Part shown: piece by piece, positions 49,577-55,689 of the stretch
Position numbering within the stretch: position 1 is the first letter of the stretch
Layout: each line of letters opens with the position of its first letter
NCBI GenBank assembly: GCA_965216675.1
Contig: CBDCGK010000004.1
Span: 455,692 to 519,691, forward strand
Reading direction: 5' to 3'
DNA: 64,000 bases
Source: Acidimicrobiales bacterium
Lineage (GTDB): Bacteria > Actinomycetota > Acidimicrobiia > Acidimicrobiales > SZUA-35
Notes under the pieces: generated by a model
The model's input: the letters and a program-made list of their open reading frames with translations, nothing else
Told to the model about the DNA's origin: nothing
Databases searched by the model: none
Translations under genes and position numbers: made by a program

Positions 49577-50560
49577 GTGACCGTCGTCCGAGCCCGCAGC
49601 CTGGTGAAACAGTTCGGTGAACACCGAGCCGTCGACGGTATCGACTTCGACATCGAGCCCGGCGAGACCTTCGCCATGCTCGGGCCCAACGGCGCCGGCA
49701 AGTCGTCGACGATGAAGATGATCTCCACGGTCAGCCCGGTGACCTCCGGCGAACTCCGAGTACTCGGGCGGGATCCGGCCACCGACGGCCGTCGGATACG
49801 GGCCAGGCTTGGCGTGGTTCCCCAGGAGGACATCCTGGACATGGCACTGACGGTGAGGGAGAACATCACCGTCTACGGTCGGTACTTCGGTCTGATGCGT
49901 TCCGAGGCCCGCCACCGGGCCGACGAGCTTCTTGCGTTCGTCCAGCTCGCCGATCGGGCCGATGACCAGGTCCGCCCGCTGTCGGGCGGCATGAAACGGC
50001 GGCTGTCGATCGCCCGGTCGATGGTGAACAACCCCGAGCTGATCCTGCTCGACGAACCGACGACCGGCCTGGACCCGCAGGCCCGCCATCTGCTGTGGGA
50101 ACGGCTCTACCAGCTGAAGCGGCAAGGCGTCACCCTCCTGTTGACGACCCACTACATGGATGAGGCCGAGCAGCTCGCCGACCGGCTCGTCATCATGGAC
50201 CGGGGTCGTATCGTCACCGAGGGCACACCACGGTCGCTGATCGAAACCCACTGCAGCCGCGACGTCATCGAACTCCGCTTCGGCGACCCCGCTCTTGGCC
50301 CGGCCGACGCCGAGGAGCCCGCGAACGGTGGAGAACCCGGCGAGGGTGGCGCCGACGCGGTCCGCGTCGAGGAGGTGGCGGCGCGGCTCGGACTGCGCAG
50401 CGAGCGGCTTCCCGATCGGGTCCTGATCTACGCTGACGACGGCGACGGAGCGCTGGCGGCGTTGGCGGAACAGGATGTCGCTGCGGCGAGCACACTCACT
50501 CGGAGGGCCACCCTGGAGGATGTGTTCCTCACCCTCACCGGGAGGACACTCGTTGAGTAG
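49577..50560 (+). CDS. ABC transporter ATP-binding protein (DrrA/NodI-like, ABC-2 type exporter)
   Basis: GPNGAGKSST (Walker A), LSGGMKRRLSIA (signature) and LILLDEPTTGLD (Walker B). GTG start. Confidence 0.9.
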   Translation: MTVVRARSLVKQFGEHRAVDGIDFDIEPGETFAMLGPNGAGKSSTMKMISTVSPVTSGELRVLGRDPATDGRRIRARLGVVPQEDILDMALTVRENITVYGRYFGLMRSEARHRADELLAFVQLADRADDQVRPLSGGMKRRLSIARSMVNNPELILLDEPTTGLDPQARHLLWERLYQLKRQGVTLLLTTHYMDEAEQLADRLVIMDRGRIVTEGTPRSLIETHCSRDVIELRFGDPALGPADAEEPANGGEPGEGGADAVRVEEVAARLGLRSERLPDRVLIYADDGDGALAALAEQDVAAASTLTRRATLEDVFLTLTGRTLVE

Positions 50561-51392
50561 CGTCACCGAGATCGCCCGACCAGGGTCCGAATCGGTTACC
50601 GACCGGCCGCTGACCGTGGCCGGCCTGACCAGAATCCTCGAGCACCTCTATGTGCGCACACCGGCCAAGTACCGGTCCGTGCTGATCTCGGGGCTCGTGA
50701 GCCCGATCTTCTTTCTGGGCCTGCTCGGACTCGGACTCGGCTCCCTGGTCGACGATCGGCAGGGCAGCACGGCAACGCTCGGTACATCCAGCTACATCGA
50801 GTTCATCGGCCCCGGCCTCCTGGCCATCTCCGCCGTGCTGTGGGCCTTCGGCCAGAGCCTGTGGCCGACCGCCGGCGAGCTGAAATGGGATCGCACCTAC
50901 CTGCTGACGGCCGTCACGCCGGTCAGCAAGGCCGAGATCGCCGTCGCCCATGTCGCGTGGATCGCCATCCGGTTCACCGCGGCGGCCGTCCTGTTCACCA
51001 TCGTCCTGGCCGCAGCGGGCGCGGTCAGCTCGTGGTGGGCGGTTCTCGCCCCTCTGTCGGCCGGAGCCACCGCACTCGTGCTCTCCTCGATCATCTGCGG
51101 CTTCACGGTGAGACAGGAGAACGAGGACACATTCGCAATGTTGCTACGCCTGGGTGCCATCCCCATGTTCCTGTTCTCCGGCGCCTTCTTCCCCCTGTCC
51201 GAAGTGCCGGCGGGCGTGGCCTGGCTGGCCAGGCTCACGCCGGGCTGGCACGGCGTCGAACTGTGTCGTGATCTGGCCCGGGGCGCAGTCGATGCCAGCG
51301 TGATCGTCCACCTCGGCTACTTCGCCGTCGTCGGCACCGCCGGGATGGTCTATGCCATCACCGGCTTCCAACAAGCGTTGGCGGACGGGTAG
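50553..51392 (+). CDS. ABC-2 type transporter permease, subunit 1
   Basis: Six hydrophobic segments. TTG 50553 is preceded by GGGAGGA and overlaps the ATPase stop. Two different permease genes imply a heterodimeric membrane unit. Confidence 0.75.
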   Translation: MSSVTEIARPGSESVTDRPLTVAGLTRILEHLYVRTPAKYRSVLISGLVSPIFFLGLLGLGLGSLVDDRQGSTATLGTSSYIEFIGPGLLAISAVLWAFGQSLWPTAGELKWDRTYLLTAVTPVSKAEIAVAHVAWIAIRFTAAAVLFTIVLAAAGAVSSWWAVLAPLSAGATALVLSSIICGFTVRQENEDTFAMLLRLGAIPMFLFSGAFFPLSEVPAGVAWLARLTPGWHGVELCRDLARGAVDASVIVHLGYFAVVGTAGMVYAITGFQQALADG

Positions 51393-51395
51393 ATC

Positions 51396-52232
51396 GTGTC
51401 CGACTCGATGCTTCGGTCCACACGGTCGATCCCATCCGCGGTCGTCGACGAAAACCGTTCCGTACCCGGCGTGTTCACCGGCATGACGCGGGTCTTCCAA
51501 CACAACCTGGTGGCGTACCGACGGATGTGGCTCACCCTGGCCAGCGGCATCTTCGAGCCGCTCATGTACCTGCTCGGCATGGGCTACGGCATGGGGGCCA
51601 TCATCGGCGACCTGTCCTTCCGTGACGAGGTCGTCACCTACGCCGCGTTCATCGGGCCGGGGTTGATGGCGTCTTCGGCGATGAACGGCACGCTCTTCGA
51701 CACCACCTACAACTTCTTCTTCAAACTCCGCGAGTCACGCCAGTACGACGGCATGCTGGTCACGCCGTTGACGATCGGCGGGCTCGTCGGGGGCGAGCTG
51801 GCCTGGGCCGTGGCCCGCGGCGCCATCTACTCGGCGTTCTTCGTTGCCACCCTCATCGGGCTGGATCTGGCCGAGCCCCTGCATGCCCTGTCGGCCTGGC
51901 CGGCAACCCTGCTGACCGGCTGGGCTTTCGGCGCCGTGGGGGCGACGCTGACCAGCTACGCCCGGGCCTGGACCGACTTCGACATGATGGATCTGATCGT
52001 CCAACCGATGTTCCTGGCTTCGACGGCGTTCTTCCCGCTGGCCGTGTTCCCCGAGTCGGTGCAGCCGATCGTCTGGGCCACTCCCCTGTTCCACGCCGTC
52101 GACCTGACCAGGGCACTGGCACTCGGCAGCGCCGGGTGGGGCGACCTCGTCCACGTCGCCTACCTGACGATCATGGGTCTCGTTTTCGGCATGCTCGCCC
52201 GCCGGCGCCTTCATCGGCTCCTGCTGAGCTGA
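51396..52232 (+). CDS. ABC-2 type transporter permease, subunit 2
   Basis: Six hydrophobic segments. GTG start 3 nt after the previous stop. Confidence 0.75.
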   Translation: MSDSMLRSTRSIPSAVVDENRSVPGVFTGMTRVFQHNLVAYRRMWLTLASGIFEPLMYLLGMGYGMGAIIGDLSFRDEVVTYAAFIGPGLMASSAMNGTLFDTTYNFFFKLRESRQYDGMLVTPLTIGGLVGGELAWAVARGAIYSAFFVATLIGLDLAEPLHALSAWPATLLTGWAFGAVGATLTSYARAWTDFDMMDLIVQPMFLASTAFFPLAVFPESVQPIVWATPLFHAVDLTRALALGSAGWGDLVHVAYLTIMGLVFGMLARRRLHRLLLS

Positions 52233-52254: not shown

Positions 52255-52941
52255 TTGCGGCCGCCGCCGGCGACGGCCATCCTGACCGACGTGGATGTCT
52301 CCAAAGCGGTCGACCAACGAATGTCCTGTCGAGCCTTCCTCGACACGCCCGTACCGGACGACACCCTGGCCGAGCTGTTGACGAAGGCGGCCCGTTCGCC
52401 GTCCGGGGGCAACGTGCAGCCGTGGAAGATCTACGTCGTCAACGGCGAGTCGATGGAGCGGTTCCAGGCCTTACTCGCCGATCGGGACATCGAGGAGCCG
52501 GGCTACGACATCTACCCGCCGTCACTGTGGGAACCGCACCGCACCGCCCGCTATGAACTCGGCGAGCAGATGTATTCGCTGTTGGGCATCGAGCGGGACG
52601 ACAAGGCCGGCCGGATCGCCCGGATGATGGACAACTACCGGTTCTTCGGTGCCCCGGCGGCGATCTTCTGTTTCCTCGACCGGCGTATGCTGCCACCACA
52701 GTGGTCGGACTGCGGCATGTTTCTCCAGACGCTCATGCTGCTGTGTGAAGAGGCCGGCCTGTCGACGTGCCCCCAAGAGATCTGGACCAACCGCTCCCGA
52801 GCCGTCACCGAGTTCGTCGGCGCACCGGAGGAGCTGATGCTGTTCTGCGGTATGGCCATCGGCCACGCCGACGAGGACCATCCGGTCAACGCACTGCGTT
52901 CCGAGCGGCTGCCGCTGGAGTCGTTCGCCCAATGGGTCTGA
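52255..52941 (+). CDS. Nitroreductase-family flavoprotein
   Basis: RMSCRAFLDTPVPDDTL..LLTKAARSPSGGNVQPWK is the classical nitroreductase N-terminal motif, with C-terminal FCGMAIGHAD. Confidence 0.8.
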   Translation: MRPPPATAILTDVDVSKAVDQRMSCRAFLDTPVPDDTLAELLTKAARSPSGGNVQPWKIYVVNGESMERFQALLADRDIEEPGYDIYPPSLWEPHRTARYELGEQMYSLLGIERDDKAGRIARMMDNYRFFGAPAAIFCFLDRRMLPPQWSDCGMFLQTLMLLCEEAGLSTCPQEIWTNRSRAVTEFVGAPEELMLFCGMAIGHADEDHPVNALRSERLPLESFAQWV

Positions 52942-52942
52942 G

Positions 52943-54037
52943 GTGATCGATCGCCCGACGGTCGACATCTACGAACGACAGGCCGAGTCGTGGGCCGAAC
53001 GACGGGCGCCCCGCCATCTCGACGCCCTCGCATGGCTCGAAGATCGGCGGCTCGGCGAACTGCCCGTCGTCGATCTGGGCTGCGGACCGGGCTGGCATCT
53101 CGAACCGCTGCAGCGACCTGCCATCGGATTGGACGCAGCGTCGGCGATGCTGGCGATCGCTCGACAGCGCACCACCGCACCTCTGGTGCAGGCGTCGGTC
53201 GGTGCCCTCCCGTTCGCCGACCGCTCACTCGGCGGGGCGGTGGCCAGCCGGGTCCACACTCACCTGCCGGCAGTCGACAACCCGATGGCGCTGGCCGATC
53301 TGCATCGGTGCCTCGACACCGACGCCCCGGTCATCTTCGACTTCGTGTCACAGGCCGACGATGGAACCGAGCCGGCCCGGTCGGGGGCCGACCTGATCAG
53401 CGACCAGCCCTTTCCGGGCCGGCTGATCTCCGCCTGGTCCGATACGGGACTGCACGATCTCCTCGAGGGCGCCGGTTTCTCAGCGGAGACGATCGACGAC
53501 TCGCGGGCGGGTCTCCGGGCCGTCAGGGCCCACCGCCGCTTGACGCTCCCGGACACCGTCGGCCCGAACATGGCCGTTCTGATGTGCGGACTCAATCCTT
53601 CGATCCATGCGGCCGAGGCCGGTGTCGGGTTCGTGACCGCCAGCAACCGCTTCTGGCGGGGTGCGGTGGCAGCAGGACTGGTGTCGACCGAACGGGATGC
53701 AGTCGATGCGCTCGGTCGCCATCACATCGGAATGACCGACCTGGTGAAGCGGGCCACCCGCCGGGCCGACGAGCTCGGCGCCGACGAGTACCGGGCCGGC
53801 TTGGCCCGGGTCGAGCGGCTGGTGGGGTGGCTGCAGCCAGGGGTGGTTTGCTTCGTCGGGCTGTCCGGGTGGCGGGTGGCCGTCGACCGCACGGCCTCAG
53901 CCGGCCTCCAGGCCACCGGGTTGGCGGGCCGCCCCGTCTATGTGATGCCGAGCACCAGCGGACTCAACGCTCATTGCCAACTACCGGATGTGATTGCGCA
54001 CTTGACCGAGGTGCGCCGTCTCTCAACCCAGGTCTAA
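52943..54037 (+). CDS. Fusion protein: class I SAM-dependent methyltransferase (N-terminal) plus Mug/TDG-family mismatch-specific uracil-DNA glycosylase (C-terminal)
   Basis: The N-terminal VVDLGCGPGWHL is SAM motif I. The C-terminal VLMCGLNPSIHAAEAGVGFVTASNRFW parallels E. coli Mug (GINPGLSS...NRFW), and VYVMPSTSGLNA parallels Mug (LPNPSGLS). GTG start 1 nt after the nitroreductase stop. Confidence 0.75.
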   Translation: MIDRPTVDIYERQAESWAERRAPRHLDALAWLEDRRLGELPVVDLGCGPGWHLEPLQRPAIGLDAASAMLAIARQRTTAPLVQASVGALPFADRSLGGAVASRVHTHLPAVDNPMALADLHRCLDTDAPVIFDFVSQADDGTEPARSGADLISDQPFPGRLISAWSDTGLHDLLEGAGFSAETIDDSRAGLRAVRAHRRLTLPDTVGPNMAVLMCGLNPSIHAAEAGVGFVTASNRFWRGAVAAGLVSTERDAVDALGRHHIGMTDLVKRATRRADELGADEYRAGLARVERLVGWLQPGVVCFVGLSGWRVAVDRTASAGLQATGLAGRPVYVMPSTSGLNAHCQLPDVIAHLTEVRRLSTQV

Positions 54038-55689
54038 GTCCATGTGTGATCGGAGCACGTCGAGACCGACGGACCCGATCGCCAGCAGATTTGCGTGAAA
54101 CGCCTTCAGGTCGAAGTCGGCTCGACTGCTGTGCTCGGTTCGTAGATCGAGGATGGCCTGCTCCCCCACCTTGTACGAGATCGCCTGCCCGGGCCAGCCG
54201 AAGTAGCGAATGACCTCCGACTCGGCCTCATCGGGCCGTAGCAGGGCCCGGGTTCGCAGAAGCTCATAGGCCAGGTCGTAGGTCCACGTCTCACCGGGGT
54301 GGAAGCTGACGGTCTCGGGAATCGGCAGCCCGAGGTGCACCCCGATGTCGATGGCGACCCGGCACGACCGGAACATCTGGCTGGCCAGCAGCCCGACCCG
54401 GTACTCGGGACGCTCCAGGTAACCGAGTTCGTCCATGAACCGCTCGGCGTACAGCGCCCAACCCTCGCCGGAACCGGGGTACCAGACCCAGGTGCGATGG
54501 AAGCGGGACAGGCGTTCGCCCTGGGAGACCTGCACCCCGACCTGCAGGTGGTGGCCGGGGAACCCCTCGTGGTAGGCGGTGGTGATCTCCTGGAACAACG
54601 GCAGAAAGTTCTTCCCCTCGATCGGATACCAGATCGAGCCCGGCCGGGAGAAGTCCTCGGACGGCCCGACGTATGACGCCGCCGAGGCGCCGCCGGCCGG
54701 TTCGACCTGCACGTTGATCGTCTTGATCGGCTCCGGCACGTCGAAGTGGGAACCGTCGAGCTGCTCCAGGGCCTGCATCTGACGGTCCTTCATGAACGCG
54801 ATGAACTCGTCGGTGGAGGTCATGGCGTAGGCCGGATCGGTCATCAACATCTCGAAGACCTCCGACGACGATTTGGTCGAGTCGATCTCCGCCGCCACGA
54901 GCCTGATCTCGTCCCAGAGGCGTTCCACCTCCTGCCAGCCCCAGGCATAGGTCTCCTCCAGGTCGAGCGACGTGCCGAGATAGAGCCCGGCCAGCATGGC
55001 ATAGCGGTCGCGCCCGACCGCATCGGCTTCGGGGGCGTCAGGGGCGTAGGTCGTTTCGAGGTAGCCGTTGAACTCGGCGAAGGCCGCCTTGGCCGGTCGG
55101 CTGCCGAACGCGCGTCGGCGGTGAACGCTTCGGACGCCTTTCCCCACGCGGTGAGTCTGTCGATGAGCTGGTCGTAGCTGGAGTCGGGTCCGGAAGCCAT
55201 CCGCCCTTGTTCGATGACCGCTTCGACCTGTCGGCGGGCGACGGCCAGCCCCTTCGCCCGTCCCGCCTCGAGCGACCGCCGATAACCGTCGAGCGCGGCC
55301 GGCACGGTCTGCAGGCGGCTCAGGACGGCTTCCCACCCCTCCCGGGAGCCGGTGTCGTGGGAGCCGAAGACCATTCGCAGATCCTGGTGGGCGCTGACGA
55401 TGTTGTTCAGGTCGCGGAGGTGCTCCTCGGCGTCGGCCAAGGTCGCAACCATCTTGCACTCGTCGAGCAGCACGTCCTGAGCCAGTCGGTCGCGGTCGTT
55501 TCCGATGTCGCAGGCTCGAGCCCGCCGCTCGATGTCGGCCCAGACACCGGCCCGCTGTTCATAGCCTTCGGGCGACAAGTCGGGCCAGCGGTGATCGTGA
55601 CCGGACACCCCGGCCATGGTGGCATTGACGGGATCGGCGGCAGCGGCCAGGTCGGTGGCCTCGTCACTCAGCGCGAAGATGTCGGTCAT
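54023..55689 (-). pseudogene. DUF885-family (metallopeptidase-like, HEGFPGHH) gene interrupted by a single frameshift near 55090-55115
   Basis: ORF 54844..55689 encodes a sensible N-terminal ~195 aa and then turns into Arg/Pro/Ser junk. ORF 54023..55459 is junk for ~120 aa and then encodes a sensible C-terminal ~360 aa (AKAAFAEFNGYLE...HEGFPGHHLQ...). The two good parts abut in frames offset by one nucleotide. Confidence 0.7.

Follow-up and report, generated by a model that had tools for sequence, protein, structure and literature searches.

We report the analysis of a gene that joins a class I S-adenosylmethionine (SAM)-dependent methyltransferase domain to a DNA glycosylase domain of the Mug/TDG type in one polypeptide. 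The gene lies at positions 52943 to 54037 of the forward strand of a stretch of 64,000 nucleotides from an Acidimicrobiales bacterium (lineage Bacteria; Actinomycetota; Acidimicrobiia; Acidimicrobiales; SZUA-35; GenBank assembly GCA_965216675.1, contig CBDCGK010000004.1, positions 455,692 to 519,691), and the whole of this stretch is referred to as the window. With a probability of about 0.7, we read the gene as the cell's only family-2 (Mug/TDG-type) base-excision glycosylase, bearing a rigidly docked, dispensable accessory SAM-binding methyltransferase domain. The protein is of a known kind, a divergent Mug-type repair glycosylase, and is ordinary within its lineage. What appears to be new is an architecture that is apparently uncharacterised, a methyltransferase clade exclusive to Mug, the repeated decay of that methyltransferase and the remodelled pocket of the Mug half.

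Mug/TDG enzymes are textbook stand-alone repair glycosylases, and animal TDG is linked with the biology of DNA methylation. In the mechanism that we propose, the C-terminal domain would turn a damaged base outwards from the DNA duplex and cleave its glycosidic bond by hydrolysis, with N218 positioning the water, as the opening step of base-excision repair; the lesions to be expected would be deaminated or adducted bases opposite G. The N-terminal domain, in which motif I and D64 are kept, would bind SAM and would most likely be an accessory enzyme acting on something other than a DNA base, for instance a protein or a molecule that is small or anionic; it would use three invariant residues, Y10, H107 and R160, and two nearly invariant ones, R21 and W165.

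The fusion gene

The gene is an open reading frame (ORF) of 364 codons with a GTG start and 0 internal stops in the ORF list and its translation, and the opposite strand of positions 52943-54037 is full of stops. A first-pass annotation of this DNA had described one polypeptide made up of a methyltransferase and a Mug/TDG-type domain, and this description holds, since the 364-residue frame is uninterrupted and both domains score above the Pfam cut-offs. All of the motifs that it quoted were located (VVDLGCGPGW at residues 42-51, IGLDAA at 61-66, GLNPS at 216-220, NRFW at 235-238 and MPSTSGLNA at 335-343), and the missed stop or frameshift that it had envisaged as splitting the gene in two was found neither in the ORF itself nor in more than 100 independent homologues, where the frame is single. 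The same full-length architecture occurs, at about 50% identity, in more than 100 homologues from independent assemblies and in 80 genome loci, and the single frame is therefore not an assembly artefact; it is also present in complete chromosomes and in the cultured strain Actinospongicola halichondriae Hal317. The gene and its two halves are as follows.

52943 to 54037, forward strand: whole fusion gene, GTG start, 364 codons, TAA at 54035-54037 (full-length homologues; AlphaFold model)
52943 to 53536, forward strand: N-terminal class I SAM-dependent methyltransferase domain, residues 1-198 (Pfam Methyltransf_25/11/23; Foldseek; profile against the PDB)
53537 to 54034, forward strand: C-terminal domain of the family-2 (Mug/TDG) uracil-DNA glycosylase (UDG) fold, residues 199-364 (Pfam UDG; PDB matches; Foldseek)

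The glycosylase domain and its pocket

The first-pass annotation had seen a complete Mug/TDG-type domain at the C-terminus, and residues 199-364 bear this out through their matches to Pfam UDG and to E. coli Mug. The Pfam model (PF03167) covers residues 205-344 with an E-value of 1.8e-10 and 41.5 bits, against a cut-off of 24.3, and the best sequence match with a solved structure is E. coli Mug (1mtl/1mug; residues 203-343, E 2.3e-14), followed by human TDG (1e-9). In a Foldseek search the modelled domain superimposes on 1mug with a root mean square deviation of 1.7 Å, a template modelling (TM) score of 0.88 and an E-value of 9e-15, after which come many TDG entries. The domain is basic, with an isoelectric point (pI) of 8.7 in the window copy and a median of 9.5 across homologues. 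Its motifs, with counts taken from 117 full-length homologues, are listed here.

53588 to 53602, forward strand: motif 1 GLNPS, residues 216-220; N218 aligns with Mug N18 and TDG N140, and all five residues are invariant (117/117)
53621 to 53656, forward strand: pocket wall GVGFVTASNRFW; the counterpart of F230 in the E. coli Mug alignment is F30, which stacks on the base
53729 to 53752, forward strand: GMTDLVKR loop; D266 in 117/117 homologues
53945 to 53971, forward strand: motif 2 or wedge loop MPSTSGLNA, residues 335-343; L341 aligns with the intercalating Leu of Mug LPNPSGLS

GLNPS has the form of family-2 motif 1, G-[IL]-N-P-[GS], with Asn and not the Asp of family 1, and the alignment of N218 with Mug N18 upholds the catalytic-Asn context that had been noted for this segment. 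Motif 2 is of the family-2 kind in a variant form, with S337 and T338 in place of N and P, and the wedge loop is held almost without exception (P336 in 116, S337 in 113, T338 in 116, and S339 and G340 in all 117 homologues). The residues of the Mug half that are invariant throughout are G216-L-N-P-S220, N235, R236, W238, G263, T265, D266, R270, S339 and G340.

Comparison with known enzymes of the family shows a common core and a changed pocket. E. coli Mug shares the alpha/beta UDG fold, the G-[IL]-N-P motif with its catalytic Asn, the Phe that stacks on the base, NRFW and a wedge loop with SGL, but is a stand-alone protein of 168 residues, whereas the fusion places a methyltransferase of 198 residues ahead of the Mug domain; furthermore, K68, GFPF and LPNPSGLS of E. 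coli Mug become the invariant Asp266, GVGF and MPSTSGLN in the fusion. The catalytic domain of human TDG (2RBA, 5HF7) has the same fold and motif 1 at an identity to the fusion of only about 26%. In the alignments D266 stands at the position of both E. coli Mug K68 and human TDG N191, and V228-G229 occupy the place of the His-His pair of canonical actinobacterial Mugs and of H150/H151 in human TDG. Human TDG carries disordered regulatory tails, in contrast to the folded methyltransferase domain carried by the fusion. MPSTSG of the fusion also resembles motif 2 of TDG, MPSSS (in MPSSSAR), a motif that lies outside the alignment made.

A further comparison is with the canonical stand-alone Mugs of other Actinomycetota and of Acidimicrobiia (for example loci L104-L119), which belong to the same family at 30-45% identity to the C-terminal domain and have neither a methyltransferase domain nor any remnant of one. 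Four positions tell the two groups apart.

Motif 1: GINPG/S in canonical actinobacterial Mugs; GLNPS in the fusion clade
Pocket wall: GHHFARPGNRFW (GHHF) in canonical Mugs; GVGF..NRFW in the fusion clade
Loop of TDG N191: G(I/L/V)TN(L/F)V, once GISNIV, in canonical Mugs; GMTDLVKR in the fusion clade
Wedge loop: LPNPSGLNAH in canonical Mugs; MPSTSGLNA in the fusion clade

Since the pocket is thus remodelled, with GVGF for GHHF, an invariant Asp266 for Asn and PSTSG for PNPSG, the lesion preference of the fusion clade probably differs from that of canonical Mugs, so far as sequence can tell. A family-2 enzyme with an additional acidic residue has been described: the MUG of Deinococcus radiodurans (the 'MUG2' class, 2C2P/2C2Q) is reported to rely on a further catalytic residue, Asp93, and to act on a wider range of substrates (PMC5128194, PMC6300522). 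It is a weaker match to the fusion (29-31 bits) than E. coli Mug is. The fusion clade too has an additional invariant Asp close to the pocket, D266; by index arithmetic Asp93 would fall nearer to residues 276-277 of the fusion, which are not conserved.

The methyltransferase domain

The N-terminal half matches Pfam Methyltransf_25 (residues 42-125, E 5e-11), Methyltransf_11 (E 9e-11) and also Methyltransf_23, all above the gathering cut-offs, so that the domain searches suggested by the first-pass annotation return Methyltransf_25/11 and UDG (PF03167) for the two halves. The features of this half are the following.

53066 to 53095, forward strand: SAM motif I VVDLGCGPGW, residues 42-51; D44, G46 and G50 invariant, G48 in 116/117 homologues
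53120 to 53140, forward strand: acidic loop AIGLDAA at the end of strand 2; D64 in 117/117 homologues
53195 to 53215, forward strand: SVGALPF segment with Ser at position 85; P90 invariant in the 117 homologues
53270 to 53314, forward strand: helix AVDNPMALADLHRCL, residues 110-124; P114 invariant, H121 in 116/117, L120 in at least 90%; retained in relatives without motif I and probably part of a platform that contacts the glycosylase domain
53399 to 53437, forward strand: SDQPFPGRLISAW, residues 153-165; R160 in 117/117 and W165 in 115/117 homologues

The domain has what defines a class I methyltransferase, namely motif I (D/E-x-G-x-G-x-G) and, at the end of strand 2, an acidic residue, D64, which would be expected to bind the ribose of SAM. 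The order of secondary structure in the model is that of the Rossmann-like seven-strand fold, with Foldseek TM scores of 0.75-0.80 to 3e23, 3h2b and 5cm2. The earlier claim of a methyltransferase domain with SAM motif I and an acidic loop is therefore confirmed, with both motifs intact and the Pfam matches above cut-off. Y10, D44, G46, G50, D64, P90, H107, P114, R160 and G178 are invariant in the full-length homologues, and R21, G48, H121, W165 and R198 are conserved in at least 90% of them; on this conservation the SDQPFPGRLISAW segment is a candidate substrate site of the methyltransferase. The only departure of the window protein from the listed conserved residues is Ser85, at a position that holds D in 77 homologues, S in 25 (the window protein included), G in 4 and E in 3.

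Small class I methyltransferases of the Methyltransf_11/25 type share with the N-terminal domain a Rossmann-type fold, SAM motif I, an acidic loop and an LPF segment. The nearest structures by Foldseek are RPA2492 (3E23, TM 0.80), cg3271 (3H2B, 0.76), Trm9 (5CM2, 0.75) and the entries of DhpI (3OU6, 0.64-0.69). These are only 14-21% identical to the N-terminal domain, and therefore no substrate can be assigned to it from them; the clade of the N-terminal domain, for its part, is found only attached to Mug.

The N-terminal domain is probably not a DNA base methyltransferase, because it lacks the catalytic motifs, comprises about 198 residues without a target-recognition domain and is acidic. 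The motifs (D/N/S)PP(Y/F/W), PCQ and ENV are absent from the 364 residues, a profile of the domain searched against the PDB finds generic small-substrate and rRNA class I methyltransferases only and zero DNA methyltransferases, and the pI is 5.2 in the window copy (median 5.65 across homologues, below 7 in 91% of them). The suggestion in the first-pass annotation that the methyltransferase makes or recognises a methylated DNA base thus finds no support, given the missing motifs, the acidity and the nature of the nearest structures, which are small-substrate or rRNA/tRNA enzymes. On the same grounds, with the missing target-recognition domain, we rejected a pairing of DNA methyltransferase and mismatch repair like that of Dcm and Vsr. 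Assignment to the DVU_1556 family of methyltransferases (NCBIfam NF045667) was rejected as well, at 49.7 bits against an equivalog cut-off of 155, and no paper mentioning DVU1556 was found in the full-text literature.

Predicted arrangement of the two domains

An AlphaFold2 run on the alignment of the 117 full-length homologues gave a whole-chain model with a predicted local distance difference test score (pLDDT) of 96.1 and a predicted TM score (pTM) of 0.94. The two domains are predicted to pack in a fixed arrangement as one rigid body and not as beads on a string, which answers the earlier proposal that the interdomain arrangement be modelled: a rigid two-domain body at those scores. No PDB entry spanning both domains was found by Foldseek.

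Distribution and the complement of glycosylases

A search of a large protein database returned thousands of matches, and both domains are present in 118 of the best 120, mostly at about 50% identity; the names attached to these 120 are generic only ('TDG/mug DNA glycosylase family protein', 'uracil-DNA glycosylase family protein'). Clustering at 50% identity divides the family into 147 clusters at E <= 1e-30. Among species-representative genomes at least 577, nearly all of them Acidimicrobiia, were found to have a relative. The best 80 of these at least 577 are almost all metagenome-assembled genomes of Acidimicrobiia and include Candidatus Microthrix parvicella (L011), Candidatus Poriferisocius and the cultured Actinospongicola halichondriae Hal317 (L080). 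In an even sample of the class (n = 151) the full-length form is present in 17 genomes (about 11%), an N-truncated form of the same clade in about 11 and only a distant canonical Mug in about 38, and in the window's own genus the full-length form is found in most genomes. Outside Acidimicrobiia, a sample of 300 genomes from the phylum yielded the full-length fusion in 0 of about 260 genomes, with matches to the Mug domain only, at 34-45% identity.

The fusion is thus a class-restricted, largely vertically inherited gene of Acidimicrobiia and not a one-off, and the taxonomic mapping that had been proposed gives a form confined to that class and common within it. The first-pass annotation had also asked whether the fusion might be common and already characterised. 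Common it is, with relatives in at least 577 genomes; a published characterisation of the methyltransferase-Mug architecture was not found in full-text literature searches, in which the one apparent match used 'MUG' for a beta-galactosidase substrate.

The genome of the window has four matches to the UDG superfamily.

First: Ung, a family-1 equivalog
Second: an Fe-S protein of family-4/5 type with the motif GLAPAAHG
Third: a 605-residue protein with a weak family-4-like segment
Fourth: the methyltransferase-Mug fusion, the sole family-2 enzyme in the genome

The same holds more widely in the class sample, where each genome with a fusion-clade Mug has that one match only and lacks a canonical Mug, and among the remaining genomes about one in three has a canonical Mug. 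As none of the sampled genomes combines the two types, both probably have the same role, and the pattern suggests that the fusion-clade Mug functionally replaces the canonical Mug.

The 605-residue protein (G000:C4:3037096-3038925; locus L004, 1309-3138) has a short and weak resemblance near its N-terminus to family-4/UdgX-type enzymes, with LIIGQEGAQDE and 29 bits to Pfam UDG, and none of the NCBIfam models matches the other 450 or so residues; possibly this protein is a further UDG-like fusion, as yet uncharacterised.

Unequal fate of the two halves

Both halves of the gene are under purifying selection. Compared with the three closest orthologues, the methyltransferase half has a ratio of non-synonymous to synonymous substitution rates (dN/dS) of 0.19-0.34 and the Mug half one of 0.14-0.22, values that are approximate as dS is near saturation.

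When the methyltransferase half alone is used as the query there are only 26 matches, and among these no convincing case of the methyltransferase clade without a Mug partner was found. The contigs of three short matches were read, and in each the ORF that comes immediately after the methyltransferase ORF has the position of Mug (its annotation in L086 is UDG); P0130 and P0134 lie on contigs of 2x-3x long-read coverage, and the third is P0127. Two further short matches are labelled partial, and the remaining matches are generic methyltransferases at 33-35% identity. A stand-alone relative that might lend the methyltransferase half a name was rejected, the short matches adjoining a Mug ORF or being partial and the others being generic. 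In the stand-alone Mug family f57 the open frames upstream gave no match to the methyltransferase half of the fusion, no domain search having been made there; these frames are low in complexity and rich in Arg, Gly, Ala and Pro, as open frames in high-GC DNA are.

The reverse, a Mug half without an intact methyltransferase half, is frequent. Sixteen loci have truncated matches, many of them with an in-frame deletion of motif I and of the GRxFSxW segment, and motif-I-deleted forms are numerous among the representatives of the 50%-identity clusters. The SDQPFPGRLISAW segment is lost together with motif I in L099, L100, L102 and L103. In such decayed homologues the 'LPLALADLHR' helix and the GAGF hairpin survive along with every Mug motif, and a remnant of the 'LPLALADLHR' type is present in the truncated L089, L090, L092, L093, L098-L100, L102 and L103. 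A maximum-likelihood tree of the Mug domain separates a clade of canonical stand-alone Mugs (support 100/98) from the fusion clade (100/98). Within the latter the decayed forms are dispersed, which requires at least 7-8 changes of state, at least 3-4 of which are forced by well-supported branches, and four decayed forms lie inside the window's own genus.

The core function is thus probably that of the glycosylase, and the methyltransferase chemistry would be an accessory, repeatedly discarded, because relatives have deleted the catalytic parts of the methyltransferase many times and kept the glycosylase. The retained helix and hairpin would then be a structural interface that packs against the glycosylase. 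The first-pass annotation had offered, as an alternative, that the methyltransferase domain is a degenerate module; this does not apply to the window gene, in which the SAM-binding motifs are intact, and does apply to the many relatives in which motif I is deleted.

Two relatives deserve separate mention. A protein of 279 residues from the same genus (P0027; locus L009/L103) shares 62% identity with residues 53-363 of the window's protein. In-frame deletions have removed its motif I and residues of about 140-168, every Mug motif is still there, and it so constitutes a natural control. In L091 (G015:C5:47800-50900) a methyltransferase part at 1023-1379 (residues 6-124, 40% identity) and a Mug part at 1438-2040 (residues 154-354) are 58 nucleotides apart in different frames, with Asn and not Asp at the position of D266; this is either a genuine two-gene split or a frameshift.

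Weighing the explanation

Several points weigh against a family-2 glycosylase with an accessory methyltransferase domain as the account of this gene. The scores to the NCBIfam equivalog models of Mug are far below the cut-offs (67 bits against 144 for NF007570 and 53 against 402.6 for TIGR00584), which makes the protein a divergent member of the clade and not an equivalog of E. coli Mug, and published enzymatic activity for either domain was not found in the literature searches. The window's subclade has Ser85 and not the usual Asp at the adenine-side contact with SAM, a substitution that could, judged by sequence, weaken the SAM affinity of the window copy. The predicted rigidity (pTM 0.94) and the exclusive tie of the methyltransferase clade to Mug argue for a coupling of the domains tighter than the word 'accessory' conveys. 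Finally, the count of one fusion-clade Mug match per genome ignores phylogenetic non-independence and includes some genomes in which only 13 first-look candidates were scored.

Some of these points lead towards an N-terminal domain that senses SAM or is purely structural, transferring no methyl group, binding SAM, S-adenosylhomocysteine or nothing at all and forming a platform that regulates or stabilises the glycosylase. This is a possible but rather unlikely explanation. It draws on the deletion of motif I and GRxFSxW in relatives that hold on to the 'LALADLHR' helix and the GAGF hairpin, which places the lasting value of the domain in its structure, on the rigidity of the predicted interface, on Ser in place of Asp at position 85 in the window's subclade and on the faster evolution of the methyltransferase half than of the Mug half. 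Wherever the domain is complete, however, motif I and D64 are found without variation across the 117 homologues; Y10, R21, H107, H121, R160 and W165, which lie outside the SAM site, are invariant or nearly so, in the pattern of a conserved substrate site; and, at a dN/dS of 0.2-0.3, the methyltransferase domain as a whole is under purifying selection.

A closer partnership would have the methyltransferase and the glycosylase act on the same nucleic-acid base, methylation marking or converting the base and the Mug pocket excising it, or, in a variant, would have both domains process a carboxylated or otherwise modified pyrimidine. The exclusive fusion of the methyltransferase clade, essentially, to the fusion-clade Mug and the predicted rigidity of the two-domain body fit such a scheme, as do the presence of Trm9 among the nearest methyltransferase structures (TM 0.75) and the remodelling of the Mug pocket by the invariant Asp266 and the smaller residues at 228-229. 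A similar logic is seen in animal ALKBH8, in which a repair fold of the AlkB kind is combined with a methyltransferase of the Trm9 type. Yet the N-terminal domain is acidic, with a median pI of 5.65, and lacks the motifs of DNA methyltransferases; the fusion is accompanied by no conserved partner gene, for instance one for an enzyme that modifies bases; the fusion clade takes the place of the canonical Mug and does not add to it; and the repeated loss of the catalytic parts of the methyltransferase with the Mug motifs kept shows that the glycosylase works without methylation. We therefore hold this scheme to be improbable, and we are equally doubtful of its fullest form, in which the fusion is one machine that couples SAM-dependent methylation, or methyl-esterification in the manner of Trm9/CmoM, to excision by the remodelled pocket, with its invariant Asp266 and a GVGF wall that is enlarged.

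Neighbouring genes and integrity of the locus

Upstream of the fusion, on the same strand, lie an exporter of the ABC type and a nitroreductase-family gene.

49577 to 50560, forward strand: ABC ATPase gene
50475 to 51392 and 51396 to 52232, forward strand: two ABC-2 permease genes
52255 to 52941, forward strand: nitroreductase-family gene (Pfam Nitroreductase, 5e-31)

The TGA of the nitroreductase gene ends one base ahead of the GTG of the fusion (TGAgGTG), and on this spacing co-transcription of the pair is probable. A search for signals gave no promoter-like site and one terminator-like site, at 50691-50704, which is no more than shuffled sequence gives.

On the other side of the fusion a DUF885 gene on the reverse strand (54023-55689) is convergent with it and overlaps its 3' end by 15 nucleotides. 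The DUF885 gene is in two overlapping frames, with the ORF at 54844-55689 corresponding to positions 1-181 of the profile and the ORF at 54023-55459 to positions 183-532; the frame breaks near nucleotides 55098-55100, without an obvious homopolymer there, and the gene is either a frameshifted pseudogene or bears a sequencing error.

The upstream genes raise the question of a genotoxin-tolerance operon, in which all five genes, from the ABC ATPase and the pair of ABC-2 permeases to the nitroreductase and the fusion, would jointly export and reduce a DNA-reactive compound and repair the damage that it does. The genes are tightly packed on one strand with a single base between the nitroreductase stop and the fusion start, and a tblastn comparison of 80 homologous loci finds the five-gene order kept in L005, L006 and L009. 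This order is, however, limited to the closest relatives (62-74% identical), and L007 already lacks the exporter genes, keeping the nitroreductase only. The nitroreductase and ABC-2 permeases are absent from all of the approximately 70 loci at about 50% identity, 8 of which have a weak ABC ATPase match only (27-38% identity, 1-5 kb away), and clustering of the neighbouring ORFs shows that the neighbours in the wider family are unrelated housekeeping genes (SDR, FAD reductase, PAP2 phosphatase, PHA synthase). The exporter and nitroreductase are thus a genus-level neighbourhood and not a conserved system, and we rejected an operon or 'genotoxin module' as a family-wide feature, the 80 loci having only lineage-specific housekeeping neighbours; that such an operon explains the gene of the window is itself a poor prospect.

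Least credible by far is a fusion made by merging neighbouring genes through a missed stop, a frameshift or mis-assembly, for while the halves are separate ORFs in the database entries of P0130, P0134, P0127 and G015, the first two of these sit on long-read contigs of 2x-3x coverage, the frame is single in more than 100 independent assemblies, complete chromosomes and Hal317 among them, and the junction residues R198, T201, L202 and D204 are conserved and modelled at high confidence.

Implications

If the gene is, as we believe, a family-2 glycosylase with an accessory methyltransferase domain, then many Acidimicrobiia carry as their only Mug a version that is joined to a SAM-binding domain and has an altered base pocket. 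Should the SAM domain regulate the glycosylase or cooperate with it, this would be a new link of methyl-donor status, or of base modification, to base-excision repair; should it do neither, what remains is a divergent Mug that carries a passenger domain. Coupled chemistry, if true, would amount to a bacterial 'modify-and-excise' pathway with a logic like that of ALKBH8 or of TDG-dependent demethylation. The lineages that have lost the methyltransferase chemistry and kept the glycosylase are a natural deletion experiment that makes paired comparisons easy, and cultured hosts exist in Actinospongicola halichondriae Hal317 (L080) and Microthrix parvicella (L011), so that the question is open to experiment.

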